Virus record (IMG/VR): IMGVR_UViG_2617270963_000006
Direction: 5' to 3' (one strand)
DNA length: 19,276 nucleotides
From: a virus
Lineage: Duplodnaviria; Heunggongvirae; Uroviricota; Caudoviricetes
A program made the position numbers and the translations under genes. This document shows positions 1 through 18,907 of the stretch, piece after piece. Position 1 is the stretch's first letter, and every line of letters begins with the position of its first letter. The notes below the pieces were generated by a model. The model saw nothing but the letters and a program-made list of their open reading frames with translations. It was not told the origin of the DNA and did no database searches.

Positions 1-324
1 CTTTTTCCAGAGGCGGTCGAACTCCGCCTTCGCAAAATAAGCGGAAGCCTGGCGAAGGATATCGTTACTGCGGCGCAGTTCACGATTTTCACGTTCCAGC
101 TCTTTCAGACGCTGACGTTCAGCGGTGGTGAGCCCTCCATCACCGCCCCCGGTATCCCGCTCATGCTGGCGAACCCAGACACGCAGAGTCTCCGGCGTAC
201 AGCCAATCTTTGGAGCAATGGAACAAATTGTCGCCCATTGTGAGTCATATTCGCTCTGACTTTCCAGAACCATACGGACTGCCCGTTGACGGACTTCGGG
301 GGAAAAACGAGTATTTTTAGTCAT
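1..324 (-). CDS. IS3-family transposase OrfA (108 codons; stop codon lies just outside the window)
   Basis: Minus-strand translation from ATG at 322-324 gives [108 protein letters not shown], an HTH/leucine-zipper OrfA typical of IS3-family elements. Absent from the ORF track because it has no in-window stop. Confidence 0.8.
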
Positions 325-378
325 CCTGTTTACCTCTTTCTCAGGAAGTTTAGTCTCCAGGATTCCCGGGGCGGTTCA
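1..378 (-). mobile_element. IS3-family insertion sequence, IS629/IS1203-like, copy A (partial; body continues left of window). Terminal inverted repeat ends at 378.
   Basis: Reverse complement of 340-378 reads TGAACCGCCCCGGGAATCCTGGAGACTA, followed by an RBS and the transposase OrfA start. The same 14-nt terminus occurs at 18868 on the plus strand. Confidence 0.8.
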
Positions 379-1812
379 GTTTTCCCTGGCTTTATTGAGT
401 TCCTCCCTCAGTTCCTGGTATTTCGTTTCTACAGATGAGACATTTTCCAGTGATTGCGTGTCCTCATTATGTTTAACTGGAATTTCTTCCACTGATTCAG
501 GCGCTGCCTGTTCATTAGCCATTGTGTCCGATGTTTGTTGCTTTTCTTCATCGCCATGTTTTCCTTCTGCTGTTCCGCGCTGCGGCATCGGTGCTGATGA
601 GCGACCGCAGGCAATTTCCACGATTTCCGGATCCGGGTTAGCGTGATCGGTTTCGGTCAACACTTTGTTGAGATATTCAGTCACGCGTGCCGGGATGGCC
701 TCAATGCCGATTGGTGCTTCTTTCACGGAAGCCACCACAATGGCGCGGGAATAATCCAGCCCACCGGGCATGGCGATAAATTTGTCGCGAAAAACAGAAA
801 AGGGCGGCTTATTCTCTGACACGATTTCTTCAACGCGTTTTGCGTGTGCTGGGTGCAGGTTATAAATATCCACATCCATTGAACGGGCCAGAACGCCGGT
901 GGCTACATCTCGTGCGAGTGATGTCTTATCATGTTTGAATCCTTCACCACGATCGGTAATATTTCCGCCGCCAGCGTTAGCACCGGAAGGCGTACGGGTA
1001 ATGCCTGAAACATAATTTCCGTTCTGCCATTCTTTTGTCAGCAGGCCCTGATCAAGGTAGTCAGTTTTCATCCAGGTGGAAATGAACTTGTCGAATTCAG
1101 CCGGGCTGATGCGATGATTTGCAGAGTGGGGGAATGCTTTCCCTACAGATTCAGCCAGGCGACTAAGGTGATAGTTCGTCAGTTTATCCAGTTCATGATG
1201 CGCGGCGCGCACAGCAGTAAGCAGGCTCTGAAGGTAACTGTCCTCTGTGTCCATCTCCATACGGATCACGTTATTGCGTTGTTCTGGTGTGGCATGATGC
1301 CGGTATTTTCCATCTTCATCTTTGCTGAATAAGAAGAGGTGAAGGAAGCGATGAGTAAGGCTCAGAGTGGCGACGGGAATTTCACACTCAGAACAGTCAT
1401 CGTCGCTGTCCGGGGATTCGTTTTTCTCCACATCATCCGGAATAGTTCCGTCCGGGTCATCGTTGTCATCGCCAGCAGTTGTGGCATCTTCACCGTTGAT
1501 GTTGTCATTGAAGGGTATAGCCATCATGGTGATGCCATCTTCCCCGCCTTTTTCATAGCGGTTGCAGAATTCAGTATCAAACACGCCTTCCGGTGGAAGG
1601 TCATTCACGACGGGGAAATTTACGCGAACGGGTTTTTTGAAATCATCCTCGTCGTAGCCTGCATCGTCCATGGCTGCAATGCAGCGGGAAACTGCGACAG
1701 AAAGTTTTCTGGCATCAGCCCAGAAAAAACCGCCTTTGATGCCAAGGCGTTTTCTGACTTTATCGTTTTTTGCTTCGCAGTGTAGTGCAAAAGTCTGTTT
1801 ATCAGCGCTCAT
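376..1812 (-). CDS. hypothetical phage early protein, 478 aa, with a strongly acidic D/E-rich segment; C-terminus probably truncated by the IS insertion
   Basis: Long ORF in the track with ATG start and GAGG about 11 nt upstream. Its stop codon TGA is the first three bases of the IS terminal repeat (376-378). No family recognised. Confidence 0.55.
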
Positions 1813-1919
1813 TGTATTTAAACCTCTGGCTGGATTAGAATTAGAGGCCCTTTGTCTGATTTCTCCGAATACGGTGACGCAGGGAGAAATCCGGTAGCCT
1901 GCGCTGCCGGATTTTTATT

Positions 1920-2306
1920 TCAGTGGAAGGTTGCCTGGTTTGCTGTTTTGTGAGTTGTTTTTCCCTTTTCGTGCTGGCATTCAGAGCAGTCGCACTCAGA
2001 ATTTTCTCTTGCAAATTCAAGAGCCTGCGCCAGTGTATGGATTTGTTGTGCTCCAATGTTGCTTCTGACGACTTCACATGCAGCATGAATATATGGGCTT
2101 GGTGTTTTGCCATTTAACCCACATGAAACCAAACGACTGTCTTTATATTCGTTATTTCCAACTTCTGTAAGCACTGAAAAAGAAAATACAAAGTCGATTT
2201 TGTATTCTTTGCATATTTTACTGATGCGTTCTGCAATTTCTTTGAGTTCATTTATTGCATCAGGACTGGTTTCGGAAAATATTTCATTTTGCGCAAGTTC
2301 TTTCAT
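1920..2306 (-). CDS. hypothetical protein, 128 aa, C-terminal Cys cluster (CDCSEC), in an AT-rich segment
   Basis: ORF track; ATG start; weak RBS; same strand as the early-left operon. Confidence 0.4.
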   Translation of the reverse strand: MKELAQNEIFSETSPDAINELKEIAERISKICKEYKIDFVFSFSVLTEVGNNEYKDSRLVSCGLNGKTPSPYIHAACEVVRSNIGAQQIHTLAQALEFARENSECDCSECQHEKGKTTHKTANQATFH

Positions 2307-2379
2307 TTTGATTTTTCCGTGATTGATAATTAATGCGGTTTTTATTTCGGCAGATATGGAAGGTGTATTTTATTACTCG

Positions 2380-2601
2380 TCACAACGACTCTGCTTTTAC
2401 GGGTAAGCCATCGCGCCCGATGAAAACTTTAATCATGCAGTCGGTAATGCATGTTTTTGTTGTGAAGTTACGAATATAGAGTTTTCTCTTTTCAATATTG
2501 TTTGCTGAAGCGATATATGTCCGACCTTCATGAAGAACATAATCGCCAGGCGTCACGCACTGACGTGGTATTTCATCAGTTCCGAAGTGATGAGCAATCA
2601 T
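2380..2601 (-). CDS. hypothetical small protein (about 73 aa from the internal ATG; the ORF extends to a GTG at 2619)
   Basis: ORF track 2380-2619. The ATG at 2599-2601 is preceded by GGAGA with a 5-nt spacer. Confidence 0.3.
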
Positions 2602-3058
2602 AATTATCTCCATTTTCACAAATGAACTTTGTTGATGCGGTGCCTGGTGCCTCCAGGTGGCGTTAACCAGTTAACAATTAACGCCGGGTCAGGGGACGAT
2701 GACTTTCCGTGACATCCTGTCGGTTTAACTGTTCCGCGTGCGCTGAGCCGCATTCACCGCATCACAAAATTCACTTTAAAAAGGGCGGACATCAGCAATC
2801 GGCAAACCGATATCCGCCAAGGGTTACACACAGCAATGTTGTTATTCACAACCGGAAGCGCACGGTCGAAGAAATCTAACGACAATCCTTCTATGGGAAA
2901 GAGTCTTCGCCTCGCGCTTTCGTGTAGTACCCTGGCTTTTCAGGGTAATGTCTGTTCAGTAAAGTGAGAGTGCCGGAACTCACCCGTGTCCGGCGCACGA
3001 TCTCCACCTCACCCGTGGAGAACTCCTCAACTACAAACCCCGTAAGGAGAGTGAATTT

Positions 3059-3268
3059 ATGACACAAGAAGAAAAAGTGATGTTTCTGATGCGGCTGGCT
3101 GTCGATACCTACAATACACAATTCAGGGAGAAAGATATACCTCAAAAGGCAGTTCCTGCCGCGGTAGATAAGGGCGGTGCTATTGCCGTATTTTACGATG
3201 CATTTGAATCATTTTTTGATGAAAAACTCGACGCTGTTAGCGACTTCGGAACATCGAGTAATAAATAA
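3059..3268 (+). CDS. hypothetical small protein, 69 aa, opposite in orientation to the surrounding early-left genes
   Basis: ORF track; strong RBS AAGGAGAG 7 nt before the ATG; its 3' end overlaps the 3' end of the convergent minus-strand gene 3237-3596 by 32 nt. Confidence 0.4.
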   Translation: MTQEEKVMFLMRLAVDTYNTQFREKDIPQKAVPAAVDKGGAIAVFYDAFESFFDEKLDAVSDFGTSSNK

Positions 3269-3596
3269 CGTTCATTACGGTTCTTAAACAACAATCAGTG
3301 GGCTTGATGTTGTTCTTTTCAAGCTCACTTGCCATCACTTCCATTATTCTTGCGCTTACACGAATTATTTGGTGGCTGTAAGCGACGCAACTATCGCTGA
3401 TATTGCTGTTTATTTCTATTACTTCATTTTCACTGGCGGCGCTAAATTTGGATATGCCGTTTCCATTGTCCTGTTTCAGTGCTGTTTCCGCTATCCGGAT
3501 GCGTTCCTGCGTTGCGGAATTTGGGCTAAGTCGATAAACCTGTCTGGCATCTTCCAGAAGCAGGGCGATAATGTGCTTCAGTTCTGTTTCATTCAT
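3237..3596 (-). CDS. hypothetical protein, about 119 aa
   Basis: ORF track 3237-3617 (TTG); the internal ATG at 3594-3596 has GGAG with a 6-nt spacer. Confidence 0.45.
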   Translation of the reverse strand: MNETELKHIIALLLEDARQVYRLSPNSATQERIRIAETALKQDNGNGISKFSAASENEVIEINSNISDSCVAYSHQIIRVSARIMEVMASELEKNNIKPTDCCLRTVMNVIYYSMFRSR

Positions 3597-4023: not shown

Positions 4024-4329
4024 TCAATCGTAATAAGCCGGAATTGATTTTCCGCGTTGTTTCTGGCGGCCTGAGCAAGTCACACCCATTTCACTGCGTG
4101 GTTTGCGGTAGTAAATACGGTTCTGTTTACTCTCGACTTCTTCTGCCTTCTTGCAGCGAAGGCTTCCGAGTGATACTGCTTTGTCTGCTCCGACGCAACC
4201 AGAGATCTTTAGCGCAATCTTCCGTGTCAGTCTTTCACTACTGCGCCGCTCTGCAATAAGTTCTTCCCTGCGAGCTTTATAGCGGCTTTTTGCCGTACCT
4301 TTGGATTCTTTCCAGATTATGGTTACCAT
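4024..4329 (-). CDS. N: N-like transcription antitermination protein (about 101 aa)
   Basis: Arg-rich N-terminus (SRYKARREELIAERRSSER) and a C-terminus (YYRKPRSEMGVTCSGRQKQRGKSIPAYYD) closely resembling the lambda N C-terminus. ATG at 4327-4329 with AGGAGA 5 nt upstream. Sits downstream of a nut-like site and leftward of cI. Confidence 0.7.
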   Translation of the reverse strand: MVTIIWKESKGTAKSRYKARREELIAERRSSERLTRKIALKISGCVGADKAVSLGSLRCKKAEEVESKQNRIYYRKPRSEMGVTCSGRQKQRGKSIPAYYD

Positions 4330-4439
4330 GATGGTCTCCTTTAAGTGGCTTTGGTGTATGACGCGTCGAGGTGTTTTTCTTCTCGATCGCGGCCTTGCAA
4401 CTGAAATTCGCGTCATCCCCAAAACCACTTAGATTTTGG

Positions 4440-4479
4440 TCTCAACGGTTAGGTTGAGAGTCCATCAATGTTAAAGAGC
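4440..4479 (-). promoter_or_regulatory. nutL-like site: boxA (GCTCTTTAACATTG) followed by a boxB hairpin (TCTCAAC-CTAACC-GTTGAGA) on the minus strand
   Basis: Read directly on the minus strand. The same boxA string recurs downstream of cro at 6087-6101. Confidence 0.5.
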
Positions 4480-4662
4480 CGGCCAATCTGTTCCGTTTGG
4501 CTTCCAGCGTCCTGCTGTTGAATTGAAGATGACCTAAGTTATCTGGTTGCGCAATAACTATATTTATCATTTTATGAAAAACGTTATAAATGACTGATAA
4601 CAAAAATATTTTATTTTTTGTGGTATCCGCGTGATATTTTCAAGGGGGAAAGGCTGATTGTT

Positions 4663-4884
4663 ATGGGTGATTGCATGTTAATCGAAGGGGAATTTGGTGT
4701 GTTGCACCAGCGGGTAGTCGAAATTCTAGGGGTGTCGTTGCTTGAGGTTATTGCTACTGGGGAAGCTATTTCAGCAGATGCTATTGCGGGAATGATCCGA
4801 GTGCTTCACCATGATGAATTGGATGATCTCGCTGTGAAGTTAGCTATAGATGTGTTACTTCAGGATATGCGACTGTGTAATTAA
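4663..4884 (+). CDS. hypothetical small acidic protein (about 73 aa) between nutL and cI, opposite in orientation to both
   Basis: ORF track 4618-4884; ATG at 4663 preceded by AAGGGGGAAAGG; AT-rich upstream region; hairpin immediately downstream. Confidence 0.4.
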   Translation: MGDCMLIEGEFGVLHQRVVEILGVSLLEVIATGEAISADAIAGMIRVLHHDELDDLAVKLAIDVLLQDMRLCN

Positions 4885-4917
4885 GTAAATAAAACCCGGC
4901 ACTGGAGCCGGGGGATT
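4885..4917 (-). terminator. rho-independent terminator for leftward (cI) transcription
   Basis: Hairpin CCCGGC-ACTGGA-GCCGGG at 4895-4912; on the minus strand it is followed by TTTTATTTA. Confidence 0.5.
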
Positions 4918-5036
4918 TAGAAATGGCATTTTATGAATTGGCTACTTGGCGAATGGTTTACCATCGGTGGTATTGAGCACAATAAAAGGCCGTTCTTCGT
5001 GAGTGTTCTTATAGCAAAAGTTCAGTTGGAGTCTGA

Positions 5037-5744
5037 TTACCAGCTATGTGATGACCAGAACACTCGCCCTATGATTCTTACGTTTTTGTAGAATTCTTCT
5101 CTGTTCATTACTTCATCAGGATACTCTTCGCGGTTTATCGATCTGATAATTACCGATGTTGGCGTGGCTATGAGCGTTTTTACCCTTAACAAATCAGCTT
5201 GGCAAATTGCATATGTTTTACCATCCCTGATGCTCGTATCTTGCGTGTTTACCCCCACCACATCACCATCATGGAGTGTTGGCTCCATGCTTTGCCCAAC
5301 AACCCTGACCAACTTTGCCGCTTTTTCTGGAACTCCCATTTTTTTCAGGTAATAGCGCCTAAAAACTAGAGAGAATTCTGCGGACTCCTCCAATGCACAA
5401 CTTCCTCCGCCAGCTGAAAGTGAAATATTTAGAAGGGGGAGCGCAACAAATTCGTCATTATCATTTTGATGATCATCCCAGGCGATAGCTTTTAAAGATG
5501 ATTCCCGAGCATTAGATGGCTCTTCTGCGCTCTGTGGTCTCATTGACCCTATACCAGAGCTTAGCCATTCAGGGCGAACTCTTAACGCGTTGGCTAATTC
5601 GACCATTTTACGTGATCCGGTTGTTTTACCAGATGACATCTTTTGTATGGCTGGTTGTGATACCCCCACCATGTCTGCAAGTTGTGCTTGTGACAACCCG
5701 GCTGAACTCATGGCGGCATTTAGTCTTTCTGCGAATGTTTTCAT
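5037..5744 (-). CDS. cI: CI-type prophage repressor (N-terminal HTH, C-terminal S24/LexA-like autocleavage domain)
   Basis: The translation has an N-terminal HTH (LSQAQLADMVGVSQPAIQKM), a possible Ala-Gly cleavage site (SAGGG) and the S24 motif GQSMEPT. It is divergent from the cro-like gene. Confidence 0.85.
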   Translation of the reverse strand: MKTFAERLNAAMSSAGLSQAQLADMVGVSQPAIQKMSSGKTTGSRKMVELANALRVRPEWLSSGIGSMRPQSAEEPSNARESSLKAIAWDDHQNDNDEFVALPLLNISLSAGGGSCALEESAEFSLVFRRYYLKKMGVPEKAAKLVRVVGQSMEPTLHDGDVVGVNTQDTSIRDGKTYAICQADLLRVKTLIATPTSVIIRSINREEYPDEVMNREEFYKNVRIIGRVFWSSHSW

Positions 5745-5854: not shown

Positions 5855-6079
5855 ATGAATTTAGTGATTCAGCGAGCCTTGAATATTGTTGGCAGTCAAA
5901 AACGACTTGCAGCTGATTGCGGCGTATCACAGCCCGCTGTTCATAAATGGTTGCGAGGCGGAAAAGTTTCTCCTGAAAAAGTTTTCGCTATCGTTAATGC
6001 CACCAATGGTCAGGTTAAGGCTTACGAAATTCGCCCGGACTTACCGCACCTGTTTCCTCATCCGAACCAGGCTGAATAA
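5855..6079 (+). CDS. cro: Cro-like HTH regulator (74 aa)
   Basis: ATG at 5855 with GAGG 7 nt upstream; HTH motif (QKRLAADCGVSQPAVHKWLRG); divergent from cI. Confidence 0.65.
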   Translation: MNLVIQRALNIVGSQKRLAADCGVSQPAVHKWLRGGKVSPEKVFAIVNATNGQVKAYEIRPDLPHLFPHPNQAE

Positions 6080-6195: not shown

Positions 6196-6492
6196 ATGTC
6201 ACAAACAAGTTACAGCAAACTGTCACAGCGCGATATCGATCGCGCTGAAACGGATTTACTTATCAACCTGTCAGCTCTGACGCAAAGGGGACTGGCGAAG
6301 ATGATTGGCTGCCATGAATCGAAGGTCAGTCGTACCGACTGGCGATACATCGCGGCGATTTTATGCGCGTTCCAGATGGCATCTGATATCAGTCCGATCA
6401 GCCGGGCTTTCCAGCATGCCATTAACGTTCATGCAAATAAAAAACGTCCGGTTGGGGCCGGACGTTCTGAGCAAATCCTGATGAACATCTGA
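6196..6492 (+). CDS. cII: CII-like transcriptional activator (98 aa)
   Basis: C-terminus NKKRPVGAGRSEQILMNI resembles the lambda CII C-terminus (NKKRPAATERSEQIQMEF, recalled); central HTH; position after cro and nutR. Confidence 0.7.
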   Translation: MSQTSYSKLSQRDIDRAETDLLINLSALTQRGLAKMIGCHESKVSRTDWRYIAAILCAFQMASDISPISRAFQHAINVHANKKRPVGAGRSEQILMNI

Positions 6493-6562
6493 TATTCAGG
6501 CAGGGCATGGAGCAATACACGGGAATAATTCTGCCACATCTGGAAGAATTTCGCCAGCAACA

Positions 6563-6621
6563 ACACCAACCGCAGCAGCCTGAAGCCGATTGGGTTAACC
6601 CGGAGATACCGGGACCGTCTG
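6563..6621 (+). repeat. iteron-like direct repeat, copy 1 (about 58 bp)
   Basis: ACACCAACCGCAGCAGCCTGAAGCCGATTGGGTTAACCCGGAGATACCGGGACCGTCTG; a near-identical copy follows at 6653-6712. Confidence 0.6.
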
Positions 6622-6652
6622 TGAAGATGTGCAGTCACACCAATGTGCAGTC

Positions 6653-6712
6653 ACACCAACCGCAGCAGCCTGAAGCCGATTGGGTTAACCCGGGAGATAC
6701 CGGGACCGTCTG
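6653..6712 (+). repeat. iteron-like direct repeat, copy 2 (one extra G relative to copy 1)
   Basis: Direct comparison with 6563-6621. Confidence 0.6.
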
Positions 6713-6745
6713 CGGTATGGAGTAAATCTTGTATGCGAGGGGACT

Positions 6746-7828
6746 ATGCGTAATTACGCAACAATTTCACCTCAGTTCTGGTTAGGCGATACAGGGCGAA
6801 AACTCAGGAAGTCTGGTCCGGAATGTATGGTAGTGGCGTTGTATATGATGACCTCGCCTCATTCCAATATGCTGGGCCTTTATTACCTGCCTGTTTTGTA
6901 CATTGCTCACGAAACCGGACTTGATCCTGAAGGGGCTTCTAAGGGGCTTCAAATGGCTTGCGAGGCTGGTTTTTGCAGCTATGACCATGATTCTGAGGTT
7001 GTATGGGTGCATGAAATGGCAGCATGGCAGGTTGGTGAATCGCTGAAACCTGGCGATAACCGTTGTGCTGGGGTAAGAAATGAATATTCCGCGTTGCTGG
7101 AAAATCCTTTTTTATCATCCTTTTATGATAGATATAAGGATGATTTCCACCTGGATGTCAGACGTGAATCATGTCGGAAAATTGAAGCCCCTTCAGAGCC
7201 CCTTTCAAGCCAAGAACAGGAACAGGAACAAGAACAGGAAAGGGATAAAACCCTTCTGGTCCATGGCGAAAAAATCGCCACGGACCCACAGGGGGATTTT
7301 TGTCCTGTTCTGACTGAACGTCCAGGACCAGCTGGCACGACACCGGAAGCAGATTCCGGGCGTTGTGTGCAGCAGGTGCTGATCGTCGAACCGGAGCAAC
7401 AACGCCAACCGCAGCAGCCTGAAGCCGATTCCGCGATGAGCGGGAAGCCGATTGGGTTAACCCGGGCGATGCCGGGACCGTCTGCGGGACGAGTTGATTA
7501 TCCTGACGTGTTCGAACGGGTCTGGCGTGAATATCCGCATCGGGCAGGGTCAAACCCGAAGAAATCCGCGTTCAATGCCTGGAGGGCCAGATTACGCGAA
7601 GGGGTGTCACCGGATGTCGTGCTGGATGGCGTGAGGCGTTACGCAAGATACCTGGAGGCTACCGGGAAAGCGGGAACTGAATTTGTTCAGCAGGCATCGA
7701 CGTTTTTTGGCCCGAACAGGAATTTCGAAAATCCGTGGTCGCTGCCGAAGGCTGGCGCAGTCAGCCTGCGTTGCGTGAATCACATTTCTGAACCGGACAC
7801 CGAAATTCCGCCGGGTTTCAGGGGGTAA
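6746..7828 (+). CDS. phage replication initiator / replisome organiser (360 aa) with a DnaT-like C-terminal tail
   Basis: ATG at 6746 with GAGGGG upstream. The C-terminal residues SEPDTEIPPGFRG match the C-terminus of E. coli primosomal protein DnaT as recalled (SEPDSQIPPGFRG). It contains a third iteron copy and sits directly upstream of a DnaC-like gene. Confidence 0.7.
   Translation: MRNYATISPQFWLGDTGRKLRKSGPECMVVALYMMTSPHSNMLGLYYLPVLYIAHETGLDPEGASKGLQMACEAGFCSYDHDSEVVWVHEMAAWQVGESLKPGDNRCAGVRNEYSALLENPFLSSFYDRYKDDFHLDVRRESCRKIEAPSEPLSSQEQEQEQEQERDKTLLVHGEKIATDPQGDFCPVLTERPGPAGTTPEADSGRCVQQVLIVEPEQQRQPQQPEADSAMSGKPIGLTRAMPGPSAGRVDYPDVFERVWREYPHRAGSNPKKSAFNAWRARLREGVSPDVVLDGVRRYARYLEATGKAGTEFVQQASTFFGPNRNFENPWSLPKAGAVSLRCVNHISEPDTEIPPGFRG
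7211..7240 (+). repeat. hexanucleotide (GAACAG/GAACAA)n microsatellite encoding a (QE)n linker inside the replication initiator
   Basis: CAAGAACAGGAACAGGAACAAGAACAGGAA translates to QEQEQEQEQE. Confidence 0.6.
7405..7486 (+). repeat. iteron-like repeat, copy 3, interrupted by a 20-bp insertion or partial duplication, inside the initiator gene
   Basis: CCAACCGCAGCAGCCTGAAGCCGATT ... ATTGGGTTAACCCGGGCGATGCCGGGACCGTCTGCG; the internal GAAGCCGATT is duplicated. Confidence 0.55.
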
Positions 7829-10643: not shown

Positions 10644-10774
10644 ATTCATTACGATATGGGAATTCCCATATCGGGTAAAAACGGTTTGCGGTAAAGCGAG
10701 AGTTAAGCAGAATTGCTGCGGGTGCTTGAGGCTGTCTGCCTCGGGCATGCCACCGTAAGGCAGACAGAGAAAAA

Positions 10775-10860
10775 CCCCAGTTAACATTACGCGTCCTGCA
10801 AGACGCCTAACATTAATCTGAGGCCAATTTCATGCTAGACACATGTAGGTTAGCCTCTTA
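10775..10860 (-). ncRNA. sok: candidate Sok-like antisense RNA of the hok/sok module (position approximate)
   Basis: Inferred from hok-family organisation: the antisense regulator lies opposite the hok leader. No promoter or terminator was pinned down. Confidence 0.3.
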
Positions 10861-10888
10861 CGCGCCGAAAGGCAAGGAGAAGCAGGCT

Positions 10889-11044
10889 ATGAAGCAGCAA
10901 AAGGCGATGTTAGTCGCCCTGATCGTCATCTGTATTACCGTCGTAGTGACGGCACTGGTAACGAGGAAAGACCTCTGCGAGGTACGAATCCGAACCGGTC
11001 AGACGGAGGTTGCTGTCTTCACAGCTTACAAACCTGAGGAGTAA
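10889..11044 (+). CDS. hok: Hok/Gef-family type I toxin (51 aa)
   Basis: MKQQKAMLVALIVICITVVVTALVTRKDLCEVRIRTGQTEVAVFTAYKPEE is nearly identical to chromosomal Hok homologues (HokD/RelF as recalled). In-frame upstream extension from ATG 10832 (track ORF 10832-11044). Terminator follows. Confidence 0.85.
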   Translation: MKQQKAMLVALIVICITVVVTALVTRKDLCEVRIRTGQTEVAVFTAYKPEE

Positions 11045-11433: not shown

Positions 11434-11451
11434 TGATGGGTATTGTGCTCT

Positions 11452-11937
11452 ATGGCTGAGATTGTTGAAGGAGTGCACTACCTTTCGTTTGATGATCTTA
11501 CCGAAATTAATCGCCTTTTAATTGAGCTTCAAACACCAGATGAACCTGTTAGTGTGCTGAGTGTTGATAATTTAAGTTCTTCTCAGTCTCGTCCCAGCAT
11601 GGTTCGATGGTATGAACAGACTAATGACATGTTTGTACTGGCATCAGTATTGATTGAAAGTCTGATTCAGAATCATCCATTTGCTAATGCAAACAAACGA
11701 ACAGCTATGATGGCTGGTTATGTCTTCTTGTTGTTGAATGGCTATGAGTTAACAGCACCAGGCGATGAAATCGTGGAAATGGCAGAGGGACTGGCCTGCA
11801 AAACCTATACTCGAGAAGATCTCGAGAACTGGTTGTGTTATTGGTCTCGTGCGTATGACAGCCGGGAATTATGTAAAACAGGCGCAACTATTGTTTTGTA
11901 TGAAACTATCAAGCTTAAAATAGAACAGCAAAACTAA
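11452..11937 (+). CDS. doc: Doc (death-on-curing) / Fic-fold toxin, about 161 aa
   Basis: Catalytic motif HPFANANKR fits the Doc signature HxFx(D/N)(A/G)NKR. Start is uncertain: ATG at 11452 or TTG at 11443. Confidence 0.75.
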   Translation: MAEIVEGVHYLSFDDLTEINRLLIELQTPDEPVSVLSVDNLSSSQSRPSMVRWYEQTNDMFVLASVLIESLIQNHPFANANKRTAMMAGYVFLLLNGYELTAPGDEIVEMAEGLACKTYTREDLENWLCYWSRAYDSRELCKTGATIVLYETIKLKIEQQN

Positions 11938-12772: not shown

Positions 12773-12851
12773 ACGCCAGCAAAATCTGGCGTCGGGATTA
12801 GGAACCCCGGATAGAAACCGCGACAGAGACACGCCGCGAGCGTGTTTTTTA
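12773..12851 (+). ncRNA. candidate small RNA (about 80 nt) with its own promoter and intrinsic terminator, carrying a TTAGGAAC motif
   Basis: Promoter TTGACA (12737-12742), 18-nt spacer, TATATT (12761-12766). Terminator ACACGC-CGCGA-GCGTGT plus T-run at 12829-12851. No ORF. Confidence 0.3.
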
Positions 12852-13013
12852 TTGTCGTATGCACACGCACATCTGAATTATGGTGGGGCGTATAGGGGAG
12901 CTGAAAAGCTCGCCGGTTGGTTTCCCGGTAGTTCCTAACCCTGTACGTCTCGCCACCCGATGATTAGGAACCTGACGGTGGTGATAGTTTAGAAACCACT
13001 CGAGGGCGTCATT

Positions 13014-13685
13014 ATGACAACTCAAGTTTCTGTTGAAACACTCTCCACGATTACTTACAAGCAGATCCCCGTTATCACTACCGAACTTTTGGCGCACCTT
13101 TACGGCACAGAAGCTATTCGTATTCGCCAGAATCACCACGAAAACAAAGGTCGTTTCATTGAGGAAAAACACTTCTTCAAACTTGAAGGTGAAACTTTAC
13201 GTGAGTTCAAGCACAGAGTAGCTTTTAACTACTCTGTGAAAATTGCCCGTAACGTTCGCTCCCTCATCCTATGGACAGAACGCGGCGCAGCCCGTCACGC
13301 AAAAATGCTCGAAACTGATCAGGCGTGGGAGGTATTCGAAAAACTGGAAGACTGCTATTTCAGCCAGGGAAAAACAGCACCAACCGAACAGCAGCCGCAG
13401 ATTCAGCCACAATTCACAGCCGAAGAAATCATCCTCCTTTGCTACATGCAGCTCTGGATGGAAAAAGCCCAGGACCTCAGCAAACACCTGTATCCCATTA
13501 TGAAAGAGCTGAACTCCTCATACACGAACAAGCTGTATGACATTGCGTTTGAGACCATCTACATGGTGACGAAGAACAGAGACGCGCTACTAAGGGAGGT
13601 AACACGTCTCGACATGTCAAGTTCCATTATCCAGCGGGCCATGCCAATGCTGAAAAGCCTGCGGGCAAGACAATTTGAATTCTGA
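13014..13685 (+). CDS. phage antirepressor-like regulator (ORF6N/Rha-type N-terminal domain), 223 aa
   Basis: N-terminal segment (ITYKQIPVITTELLAHLYGTEAIRIRQNHHENKGRFIEEKHFFKLEG) resembles ORF6N/Rha antirepressor domains; GAGGG RBS; terminator follows. Confidence 0.6.
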   Translation: MTTQVSVETLSTITYKQIPVITTELLAHLYGTEAIRIRQNHHENKGRFIEEKHFFKLEGETLREFKHRVAFNYSVKIARNVRSLILWTERGAARHAKMLETDQAWEVFEKLEDCYFSQGKTAPTEQQPQIQPQFTAEEIILLCYMQLWMEKAQDLSKHLYPIMKELNSSYTNKLYDIAFETIYMVTKNRDALLREVTRLDMSSSIIQRAMPMLKSLRARQFEF

Positions 13686-16649: not shown

Positions 16650-16885
16650 GTATCCGTTCAACGGGAATGTTACATACCTCACAATTAAGTCAGTTGAATG
16701 TTGTCTGCCCGGATGAGAATTTGTTAGAAAAAACTGCATGGTGAATCCCCCTGAGCGGAGGGGCGACTGGTGACGGTATAATCTCTGATTATCAAAACGA
16801 GAATGACGCGGGTTTAGTGGCACCGGGCTGAACTCACCGGGAGGCACCCGGCACCATGCAATGGCACATAGCGCCACTCTCCAGC

Positions 16886-16940
16886 CCCTCTCCGGAGGGG
16901 CTTTCTTATGGACAAAAAAGCCCGCGCTGGGAGACGCGGG
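16886..16940. terminator. back-to-back hairpins: plus-strand CCCCTC-TCCG-GAGGGG then T-rich; minus-strand terminator (A-run, then GCCCGCG-CTGGGAGA-CGCGGGC)
   Basis: Read directly from the sequence; orientation of function uncertain. Confidence 0.4.
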
Positions 16941-17134: not shown

Positions 17135-18907
17135 ATGGCATTTAAACACTATGATGTTGTCAGGGCGGCGTCGCCGTCAGACCTTGCGAAACGAATAACT
17201 CAAAAACTGAAGGAAGGGGGGCAGCCTTATGGTAGTGCGCTGATTTCGACAGCTGGTTATGGTGCGGAGTTCATCCAGCCAGTTGTGAGTGAGGGGAGCA
17301 TCTCATCACCAGAGGAGCCAGGCAACCGTCCGACGACCTCAGCGCCTTCTGTTGCGCCAGAATATTACTATGTGATCGCGCTTGCTGGTCAGTCCAATGG
17401 TATGTCATACGGTGAGGGACTGCCATTACCGGATACATTCGACAGCCCTGATCCACGTATTAAACAGTTAGCGCGTCGCAGTACGGTGACACCGGGCGGT
17501 GCAGCATGCAAATATAACGACATCATTCCGGCGGACCATTGTCTGCATGATGTGCAGGACATGAGCCGTCTTAACCATCCGAAAGCGGACCTGTCAAAGG
17601 GGCAGTACGGAACCGTGGGGCAGGGGCTGCATATCGCCAAAAAACTGCTGCCGTTTATACCGGCGAATGCGGGCATTCTGCTGGTTCCGTGCTGTCGTGG
17701 GGGTTCAGCGTTCACCACCGGAGCTGATGGCACATACAGTGACGCGAGTGGCGCCTCGGAGAATTCACCCCGCTGGGGTGTGGAAAAGCCGCTGTATAAG
17801 GACCTTATCGGTCGAACAAAAGCGGCACTGGAGAAGAACCCGAAAAATGTGCTGTTTGCCGTGGTGTGGATGCAGGGGGAATTTGATTTTGGCGGTACGC
17901 CGGCAAATCATGCCGCACAGTTTGGTGCGCTGGTTGATAAATTCCGTGCAGACCTGGCGGATATGGCAGGCCAGTGCGTCGGTGGCTCTGCTGGCGGTGT
18001 TCCCTGGATATGCGGGGACACGACGTATTTCTGGAAGCAGAAGAACGAATCCACGTACCAGACGGTGTACGGCAGCTATAAAAATAAAACGGAAAAGAAT
18101 ATCCATTTCGTACCGTTCATGACCGATGAGAACGGGGTGAATGTGCCGACGAACAAACCGGAAGAAGACCCGGACATTCCGGGTATCGGTTATTACGGTT
18201 CGAAATGGCGTGACAGCTCAGCCACCTGGACGTCACAGGACAGGGCGAGCCATTTCAGTTCATGGGCTCGCCGTGGGATTATTTCCGACCGTCTGGCAAC
18301 GGCGATTCTGAGCTGCGCGGGTAAGTCTTCTGCGTTTGTTAATGGTACTGCCGGGGTGGTTGTTCCAGACAGACCGGTTACCACCTCAGAGTCTGTAATT
18401 TTTTACGATGCCAAAAAAGCTACAGACAATCAGCTGAAACCCTATGGCTGGGACGGTGTGTATGGCAGGGGCACACTGGTTGATGACAGCGGCAATAAAG
18501 CTCTGCGAATTGAGAAAAATAACAGCGCGAAATCCTGGTCAATGTACTGTGATATTGCTGCAGACAAGGCAAAACTTTTACTGGAAAAAGGCGGGGAAAT
18601 TGCTGTCCGGTTTAAAATCCCCGAAAACGTCAATCTTGAGACAACCAGAAACAAGTATGCCTTTGGTTTGTACTGGCGAATAGCGGAATGGCCGGGTGAG
18701 GGTGGTGAAGGCCATCTGAGTTCTTTCTTTGTCCAGACAGATAAAGCCAGTATTAATGTTGCATACCATCATACAGTTAATCAACAAAAAGAACTTGGCA
18801 CGTTTGGCGCATTCGACCATGACTGGCATACGCTTGCATTTAAATTTAAGGGCAGTAACAGCATTAATGAACCGCCCCGGGTTTCCTGGAGAGTGTTTTA
18901 TCTGTGA
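17135..18907 (+). CDS. nanS: NanS-p-type prophage esterase (DUF1737 N-terminus plus SGNH/SASA sialate O-acetylesterase domain), C-terminally truncated and fused to IS sequence
   Basis: N-terminus MAFKHYDVVRAASPSDLAKRITQKLKEGGQPYG and the GQSNG motif (IALAGQSNGMSYG) are characteristic of NanS-p encoded downstream of Q/stx in lambdoid prophages. The frame enters the IS at 18868, so the last 12 codons are IS-derived. Confidence 0.75.
   Translation: MAFKHYDVVRAASPSDLAKRITQKLKEGGQPYGSALISTAGYGAEFIQPVVSEGSISSPEEPGNRPTTSAPSVAPEYYYVIALAGQSNGMSYGEGLPLPDTFDSPDPRIKQLARRSTVTPGGAACKYNDIIPADHCLHDVQDMSRLNHPKADLSKGQYGTVGQGLHIAKKLLPFIPANAGILLVPCCRGGSAFTTGADGTYSDASGASENSPRWGVEKPLYKDLIGRTKAALEKNPKNVLFAVVWMQGEFDFGGTPANHAAQFGALVDKFRADLADMAGQCVGGSAGGVPWICGDTTYFWKQKNESTYQTVYGSYKNKTEKNIHFVPFMTDENGVNVPTNKPEEDPDIPGIGYYGSKWRDSSATWTSQDRASHFSSWARRGIISDRLATAILSCAGKSSAFVNGTAGVVVPDRPVTTSESVIFYDAKKATDNQLKPYGWDGVYGRGTLVDDSGNKALRIEKNNSAKSWSMYCDIAADKAKLLLEKGGEIAVRFKIPENVNLETTRNKYAFGLYWRIAEWPGEGGEGHLSSFFVQTDKASINVAYHHTVNQQKELGTFGAFDHDWHTLAFKFKGSNSINEPPRVSWRVFYL

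Follow-up and report, generated by a model that had tools for sequence, protein, structure and literature searches.

A small gene at the PL-side border of the cI-N hotspot in a lambdoid prophage encodes a putative remote homolog of the YcgZ/YmgA/AriR connector proteins

The small connector proteins YcgZ, YmgA, and AriR (YmgB) are products of the Escherichia coli operon ycgZ-ymgABC (PF10798; PDB 2OXL). YmgB binds RcsC at its histidine-kinase (HK) domain and switches on the Rcs phosphorelay, leading to colanic-acid capsule, curli repression, and acid resistance (PMC6900184); this activation is independent of RcsF, and the periplasmic domain of RcsC is dispensable for it (PMC11451591). Independently of Rcs, YmgB also raises ppGpp, by binding SpoT through its third helix (PMC10704370). 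Assembly into homodimers or hetero-complexes, and both contacts, with the RcsC HK domain (PMC6900184) and with the TGS/helical domains of SpoT (PMC10704370), are known for E. coli YmgB only. Capsule and broad phage resistance arise from Rcs activation (PMC7553319). Tschowri et al. suggested a phage-associated origin for the unit formed by bluR-bluF-ycgZ-ymgAB, and reported Salmonella and classical O157:H7 to be without the complete chromosomal unit (PMC3509220). Here, we analyzed a 19,276-nucleotide stretch of DNA from a Caudoviricetes virus (IMG/VR record IMGVR_UViG_2617270963_000006; hereafter, the window), in which a small gene lies between the leftward promoter PL with its nutL site and the repressor gene cI. 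Profile comparison and structure modeling point to this gene as a phage-borne relative of ycgZ, ymgA, and ariR.

4663–4884, plus strand: the small gene, with a predicted YmgA/AriR-like acidic three-helix product (PHROG 3946), assigned on open reading frame (ORF), family, selection, and fold evidence

The K-12 ycgZ-ymgA-ariR operon and 73 orthologous loci yielded 196 YcgZ, YmgA, and AriR sequences, with which the phage family was compared using hhalign. The family matched the YmgA orthologs with 94.6% probability (E 7e-8) and the pool of all three families with 94.6% probability (E 6.7e-8; the 40 aligned columns run from helix 1 across the loop into helix 2), and YcgZ alone and AriR alone with 73.8% and 45.2%, respectively; reversed-profile controls gave 5.3% and 1.1%. 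A motif around an invariant glycine was common to the phage family and YcgZ/YmgA/AriR. When a mainstream member of the family (P0012) was modeled with AlphaFold2 from a diverse alignment, a confident three-helix model was obtained (predicted local distance difference test, pLDDT, 85.7; predicted template-modeling score, pTM, 0.70), and the top Foldseek match of the fold was 2OXL (prob 0.93, template-modeling scores 0.60/0.64), whose three-helix architecture the model reproduces. At the level of sequence profiles and predicted structure, these results indicate that the phage family is a remote homolog of the YcgZ/YmgA/AriR proteins. The initial annotation of this DNA had stated that the product matches nothing recognizable, and this statement is superseded by the hhalign and Foldseek results.

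Several observations weigh against this assignment or narrow it. The Foldseek match to 2OXL had an E-value of 0.95, which is not significant, and 2OXL was not found when PDB sequences were searched by hidden Markov model (HMM) methods with two family profiles, searches that returned only chance matches such as symportin, USP28, and MutM. The AlphaFold2 model of the window protein itself, built from a shallow alignment, was of unusable quality (pLDDT 59.6), and its fold is therefore taken from a relative that is 43–44% identical. The sequence homology is limited to helices 1–2, and Pfam YmgB (PF10798) was unmatched at E ≤ 10 by the window protein and by mainstream and diverged members. Helix 3 could not be aligned with that of YmgB; in its place, the phage family has a highly conserved acidic helix read by eye as DLAVELAIDVL, and at the position of YmgB Arg74, which contacts SpoT (PMC10704370), the by-eye alignment has Val. 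Because helix 3 thus differs from the SpoT-binding surface of YmgB, the target may also differ. The characterized relatives form a three-protein complex expressed from a chromosomal operon, whereas the phage gene is solitary, and some members of the family lie outside immunity regions, so that the link to PL is not obligatory.

The failure to reach the PF10798 threshold is set in proportion by the canonical proteins: K-12 AriR scored 90 bits and YcgZ 24.9 bits, and K-12 YmgA also fell below the model threshold; therefore, a missed threshold does not exclude membership in the wider group. Other searches likewise made no connection, since BLAST failed to join the phage family to YcgZ/YmgA/AriR, tblastn of canonical AriR and YmgA against 50,697 phage genomes gave zero matches, and Foldseek against viral models (BFVD) returned nothing significant. 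The phage proteins are further distinguished from AriR by having no counterpart of its N-terminal extension of approximately 25 residues, and the three paralogs YcgZ, YmgA, and AriR share an operon under BluR/MarA/RpoS, whereas the phage gene stands in an immunity region and not in the chromosomal ycgZ-ymgABC context next to bluR/bluF.

The same profile comparisons bear on another small-protein family, DUF2767, that of FumD/YdhZ (69 amino acids, “fumarate hydratase D”), whose name is attached to one UniRef entry of a family member. FumD/YdhZ is of comparable length, its helix 1 motif (hh-G-x-x-V-hE) bears a vague resemblance, and the diverged member P0159 of the phage family gave a match below threshold (14.7 bits, where the cut-off is 20.7; E 0.032). 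In a Cedecea-like chromosome (L013, 4001–5048), P0159 stands beside a GGDEF gene, approximately 630 bp from a true FumD/YdhZ gene. However, the window and mainstream proteins were unmatched at E ≤ 10 (PF10965 / NF007630), the hhalign result for the phage family against DUF2767 (17% probability, E 1.4e-3) is non-significant and no evidence of homology, and DUF2767 itself was linked to the YmgB group with a probability of <1%, whereas the phage family reached 94.6%. A DUF2767/FumD identity is largely refuted by these comparisons and is in our judgment barely credible. Literature searches brought up no publication dealing with the small gene, DUF2767, or phage proteins resembling YmgB.

The ORF extends over 4618–4884 on the plus strand from a TTG codon and contains in-frame ATG codons at 4663 (73 amino acids) and 4675 (69 amino acids). 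The second of these is more probably the true start, because the nearest relatives (61% identical) begin at the residue matching ATG 4675 and because the putative extended −10 element TGATATTTT (4632–4640) stands 34 nt before it. Much of the initial description of the gene was borne out: it had been described as encoding an acidic protein of approximately 73 amino acids on the plus strand between PL/nutL and cI, opposite in orientation to both, with an AT-rich upstream region and a ribosome-binding site. The protein has an isoelectric point of 4.3–4.4, with 12–13 Asp and Glu residues against 4 Lys and Arg residues; the GC fraction is 0.27 over 4550–4649, the 100 bp upstream; and the purine-rich sequence AAGGGGGAAAGG is located 9 nt upstream of ATG 4663. 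Pairwise dN/dS (nonsynonymous to synonymous substitution rates) was 0.055–0.13 among homologs with unsaturated dS, a selection signal that rules out a spurious ORF. The small ORF is a functional gene under purifying selection, far beyond chance.

The gene belongs to PHROG 3946, a (pro)phage family of narrow range in Enterobacteriaceae, for which the function is listed as unknown; the window protein gave zero matches to Pfam, NCBIfam, and PADLOC. It is very common. At least 1000 E. coli contigs encode the exact 73-amino-acid protein, and a profile search recovered 607 related protein clusters in Salmonella, Klebsiella, Enterobacter, Citrobacter, and relatives. Related genes are carried by P22-like phages of Salmonella and by prophages of Klebsiella, Enterobacter, and Citrobacter. 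When 1.84 billion representatives were searched in full with HMMER, only 65 clusters at 50% identity emerged, and the family is therefore narrow. The window copy is a divergent member that shares 43% identity with the mainstream proteins of Salmonella and 61% with the relatives closest to it. The databases consulted all list the gene as hypothetical: it is labeled a hypothetical protein in phage 06-3462, and the same label was given in 29 of 30 rows among the matches listed for 50 matching complete E. coli genomes. The link to YcgZ/YmgA/AriR would thus define a previously unannotated, widespread phage branch of this group.

This part of the window constitutes a lambdoid prophage's immunity region, and the prophage has 99.3% identity over the query region to the Shiga toxin (Stx) phages PA28 and 06-3462. 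The features surrounding the small gene are as follows.

4024–4329, minus strand: gene for the N antiterminator, first of the PL operon (ORF list; weak Pfam N_peptide match, E 8e-4)
4440–4459 and 4470–4480, minus strand: nutL, comprising the boxB hairpin and boxA, respectively (read from the sequence)
4529–4542, 4554–4567, and a weaker site at 4574–4587, no strand: putative left operators (OL) of the ATAAC-N4-GTTAT type (pattern search)
4606–4640, plus strand: candidate promoter of the small gene, with a T-rich tract at 4606–4619 and an extended −10 element, TGaTATTTT, at 4632–4640 (comparative conservation)
4885–4917, minus strand: predicted intrinsic terminator, with its stem at 4895–4912 and U-tract at 4894–4885 (terminator scan and folding)
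5037–5744, minus strand: cI repressor gene (Pfam HTH_3 and Peptidase_S24)
5756, 5780, and 5805, between cI and cro: putative right operators (OR) of the ATAAC-N4-GTTAT type (pattern search)
5855–6079: cro (ORF list and annotation comparison)
6196–6492: ORF at the cII position (ORF list and annotation comparison)

The coding sequence homologous to 4024–4329 is labeled antitermination protein N in phage 06-3462, and 4434–4517 shared 95% identity with the annotated nutL/boxA of phage 21, mEp235, and HK629. The operator-type pattern had 16 matches in the window against 7.0 expected, with three-site clusters at OL and OR; these clusters of the palindrome are taken as the operators, and PL, which is leftward, must by its predicted position lie in or beside the OL block at 4529–4587. 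An Rfam scan of 4300–5100 matched zero RNA families.

A comparison with relatives placed the gene at the edge of the cargo slot downstream of cI rather than among the variable contents of that slot. In phages ST104, epsilon34, and S107, in a Klebsiella prophage, and in the contigs that carry the diverged members P0172 and P0183, it occupies the equivalent place, immediately to the right of the PL operon and on the strand opposite PL and cI. Among the IMG/VR loci, the gene was present in 80 of 80; in 69 of these it was solitary between PL and the prophage repressor, a minus-strand S24 repressor that lay beyond it. Meanwhile, the ORFs between the small gene and cI, which are on the cI strand, differ from phage to phage, with at least 38 clusters across the IMG/VR loci, including BstA-like, P63C-like, and ParA-like proteins. 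Since the gene is conserved while these ORFs vary, it is the conserved PL-side border of a hypervariable cargo slot in most relatives, and not cargo. The distance from the small gene to cI is 152 bp in the window, against 66–2595 bp (median 1213 bp) in related loci (n = 69), and with only 152 bp, the slot of this phage therefore holds no cargo. The gene and its putative promoter provide a landmark of the PL-side border and an anchor for mining the cargo of the cI-N defense hotspot. As to the slot itself, the recurrent cargo of the IMG/VR loci (L088–L167) included a pair of 156- and 103-amino-acid proteins in 12–13 loci, a 359-amino-acid P63C-like protein (of the ST104 orf23 type), a 307-amino-acid BstA-like protein, a 289-amino-acid protein, and a 340-amino-acid ParA-like ATPase. 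The 152-bp spacer of the window (4885–5036) is overlapped by a 52-amino-acid plus-strand ORF (4933–5091), which had no family match and is probably non-coding.

The interval between cI and N is a recognized mosaic hotspot of defense genes that are expressed in the lysogen and, as in rexAB and bstA, share the repressor promoter (PMC8585504). The initial annotation had placed the gene in the slot of rexAB and sieB; the position in the cI-N interval stands, as lambda rexAB, P22 sieB, and BTP1 bstA all occupy the interval between cI and PL/N, whereas the equivalence to variable cargo does not, because the conserved small gene borders the slot from the opposite strand. Might the product nevertheless be a stand-alone superinfection-exclusion or defense protein that acts directly on an incoming phage, as an analog of these three systems? 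The hotspot itself (PMC8585504), the 307-amino-acid BstA-like ORF among the neighboring cargo of relatives, and the possibility of expression in the lysogen from a promoter-like element clear of operator-like sites would all be consistent with such a function. However, rexAB and bstA share both the strand of cI and the promoter of the repressor (PRM), whereas the small gene, which has a promoter-like element of its own, is on the other strand, and a cI-facing terminator separates it from cI; being on the strand opposite cI, it cannot be co-transcribed with cI from PRM. Furthermore, there is no sequence or structural similarity to rexAB, sieB, or bstA, PADLOC gave zero matches, the product, a soluble helical protein of 67 amino acids, has no enzymatic or membrane features, true cargo varies where this gene is conserved, and members also occur beside chromosomal genes. 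A direct exclusion or defense role is so far without support and appears improbable, and an indirect route via Rcs and capsule is possible.

The position beside OL/PL also raises a second possibility, namely that the protein regulates the lysis-lysogeny switch of the phage itself, for example in the role of a small anti-repressor or by partnering with CI, Cro, CII, or N, and that its place beside OL couples its synthesis to immunity. The gene diverges from PL in much the way that PRM and PR diverge at OR, and this synteny beside PL is held in most loci. However, proteins that are 80–96% identical accompany unrelated repressors and operators, such as an HK022-like cI in ST104 and a 212-amino-acid LexA-type repressor in epsilon34 and S107, and a repressor-specific partner is therefore disfavored. 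A few members are remote from any switch: one follows tail-fiber genes at the end of a prophage, one stands beside an Rrf2 regulator, and one lies in the Cedecea-like chromosome by the GGDEF gene and FumD, so the protein requires neither PL nor a repressor in cis. We consider a role in the switch to have a low likelihood.

The upstream region of the small gene contains a candidate promoter of its own, from which transcription is predicted to start near 4647. An alignment of five phages with unrelated operators showed a conserved block composed of ATTTATTTTT, 13–16 nt, and TGn(C/G/T)A..(C/T)T. In 46 of 58 unique leader regions, the pattern TGnNAnnnT ended 24–40 nt ahead of the start codon, in the form of 17 different nonamers, against approximately 7.5 in shuffles; the 58 regions are related sequences, and the shuffle comparison overstates their independence. 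A generic sigma-70 scan gave zero rightward promoters upstream of the gene, its single match being on the minus strand inside the ORF, and the proposed promoter therefore rests on comparative conservation. An alternative reading, in which the conserved block TTGATA...ATTTATTTTTT acts as an IHF/UP element for PL rather than for the small gene, was also considered. The T-tract was assigned to the gene because it also precedes copies that do not adjoin PL (L008 and L011), and a dual role, serving PL and the gene, is possible. In the pattern search of the window, no operator-like site overlapped the candidate promoter, the nearest ending at 4587; we therefore infer that CI does not sterically repress the small gene, which may be expressed in the lysogen.

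This direction of transcription also bears on the idea of an early anti-defense protein, such as an acidic mimic of DNA or a factor that inhibits a nuclease or restriction system of the host. In favor of such a factor, the protein is small and acidic (isoelectric point about 4.2–4.4) and is encoded in the early region by PL. In contrast, the gene would be transcribed away from PL, outside the early operon, and it also occurs in chromosomal, non-phage contexts; in addition, the best structural match was YmgB, not a DNA-mimic fold, and the BFVD search brought up no significant viral structural neighbors. An anti-defense function is accordingly very unlikely.

At the 3′ end, a hairpin (CCCGGC-N6-GCCGGG at 4895–4912, with a 6-bp GC stem) starts 10 nt past the stop codon of the small gene. 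Its folding energy is −13 to −14 kcal/mol, with folding z-scores of −3.2 on the plus strand and −4.0 on the minus strand, and it is followed by the U-tract UUUUAUUUA on the minus strand only. Because the U-tract is confined to that strand, the hairpin is predicted to act on the leftward cI transcript as a proper intrinsic terminator, in line with the proposal of the initial annotation; for the transcript of the small ORF itself, it would be a weak terminator at best.

Taken together with the homology, these features lead us to lean toward the view that the gene encodes a phage-borne relative of YcgZ/YmgA/AriR that serves as an autonomous module for binding a host regulatory enzyme. A connector-like binder of a host enzyme is proposed because the only characterized relatives act purely by protein–protein contacts. 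The T-rich tract and the extended −10 element approximately 30 nt upstream would drive the gene rightward, away from PL, with transcription stopping at the shared hairpin. The product, an acidic three-helix protein of approximately 67 amino acids, would by analogy most likely have neither enzymatic nor DNA-binding activity; as a dimer or oligomer, it would bind a host regulatory enzyme and alter its output. In this way, the prophage copy could reprogram the envelope-stress, capsule, biofilm, or stringent signaling of the host, and activation of Rcs would also bring broad resistance to superinfecting phages. We infer the expression, the binding to a host protein, and the identity of the partner.

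A similar mode of action is found in the Hha/YmoA proteins, small helical H-NS co-regulators that are often borne on mobile elements and act only by binding a host regulator. Lee and colleagues, the crystallographers of YmgB, reportedly called it Hha-like in 2007.

A more specific version of the proposal concerns the prophages of E. coli, Salmonella, and Klebsiella, both lambdoid and P22-like: their gene would encode a dedicated, constitutively expressed mimic of YmgA/AriR that plugs straight into the RcsC kinase domain or SpoT; we regard this version as unlikely. If it were true, a single 67-amino-acid protein would turn on the capsule and acid-resistance programs and repress curli in the lysogen; the result would be superinfection exclusion by receptor masking, and effects of lysogenic conversion on acid resistance and biofilm could be explained as well. 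Such a mimic would work even in hosts reported to be without chromosomal ycgZ-ymgAB, for example Salmonella and O157:H7 (PMC3509220). That Salmonella and O157:H7 also host phages carrying the small gene is suggestive only. More generally, the hypothesis is that a prophage can rewire two-component or stringent signaling with one tiny protein, and if the link to Rcs holds, this would be a new, indirect mode of prophage exclusion and lysogenic conversion.

Other features were observed elsewhere in the window. An STnc100 small RNA match (165 bits, 16708–16913) is followed by a NanS-p-like esterase gene (17135–18907) with DUF1737, SASA, and DUF6645 domains. The interval from the late-regulator region to the esterase gene showed no stx genes, and the prophage may be an stx-negative relative of the matched Stx phages. 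A direct repeat of approximately 70–90 bp occurs in three copies (6556–6624, 6646–6715, and 7395–7487), two of them upstream of and one inside a 360-amino-acid ORF (6746–7828) that occupies the position of the replication initiator (O) and had no Pfam match; this set could represent iterons or an origin. At 10720–10894, a match to sok antitoxin RNA (110 bits) is located approximately 550 bp upstream of a Fic/DOC-family ORF (11443–11937), which suggests modules of the toxin-antitoxin type in the nin-like region. Finally, Rfam matches to isrK and C4 antisense RNA (12773–12850 and 12876–12960) lie directly upstream of an antirepressor gene (13014–13685) with ORF6N/P22_AR_C domains. As judged from this arrangement, they would be a c4/ant control module resembling immI of P1, a second layer of immunity in a lambdoid prophage.
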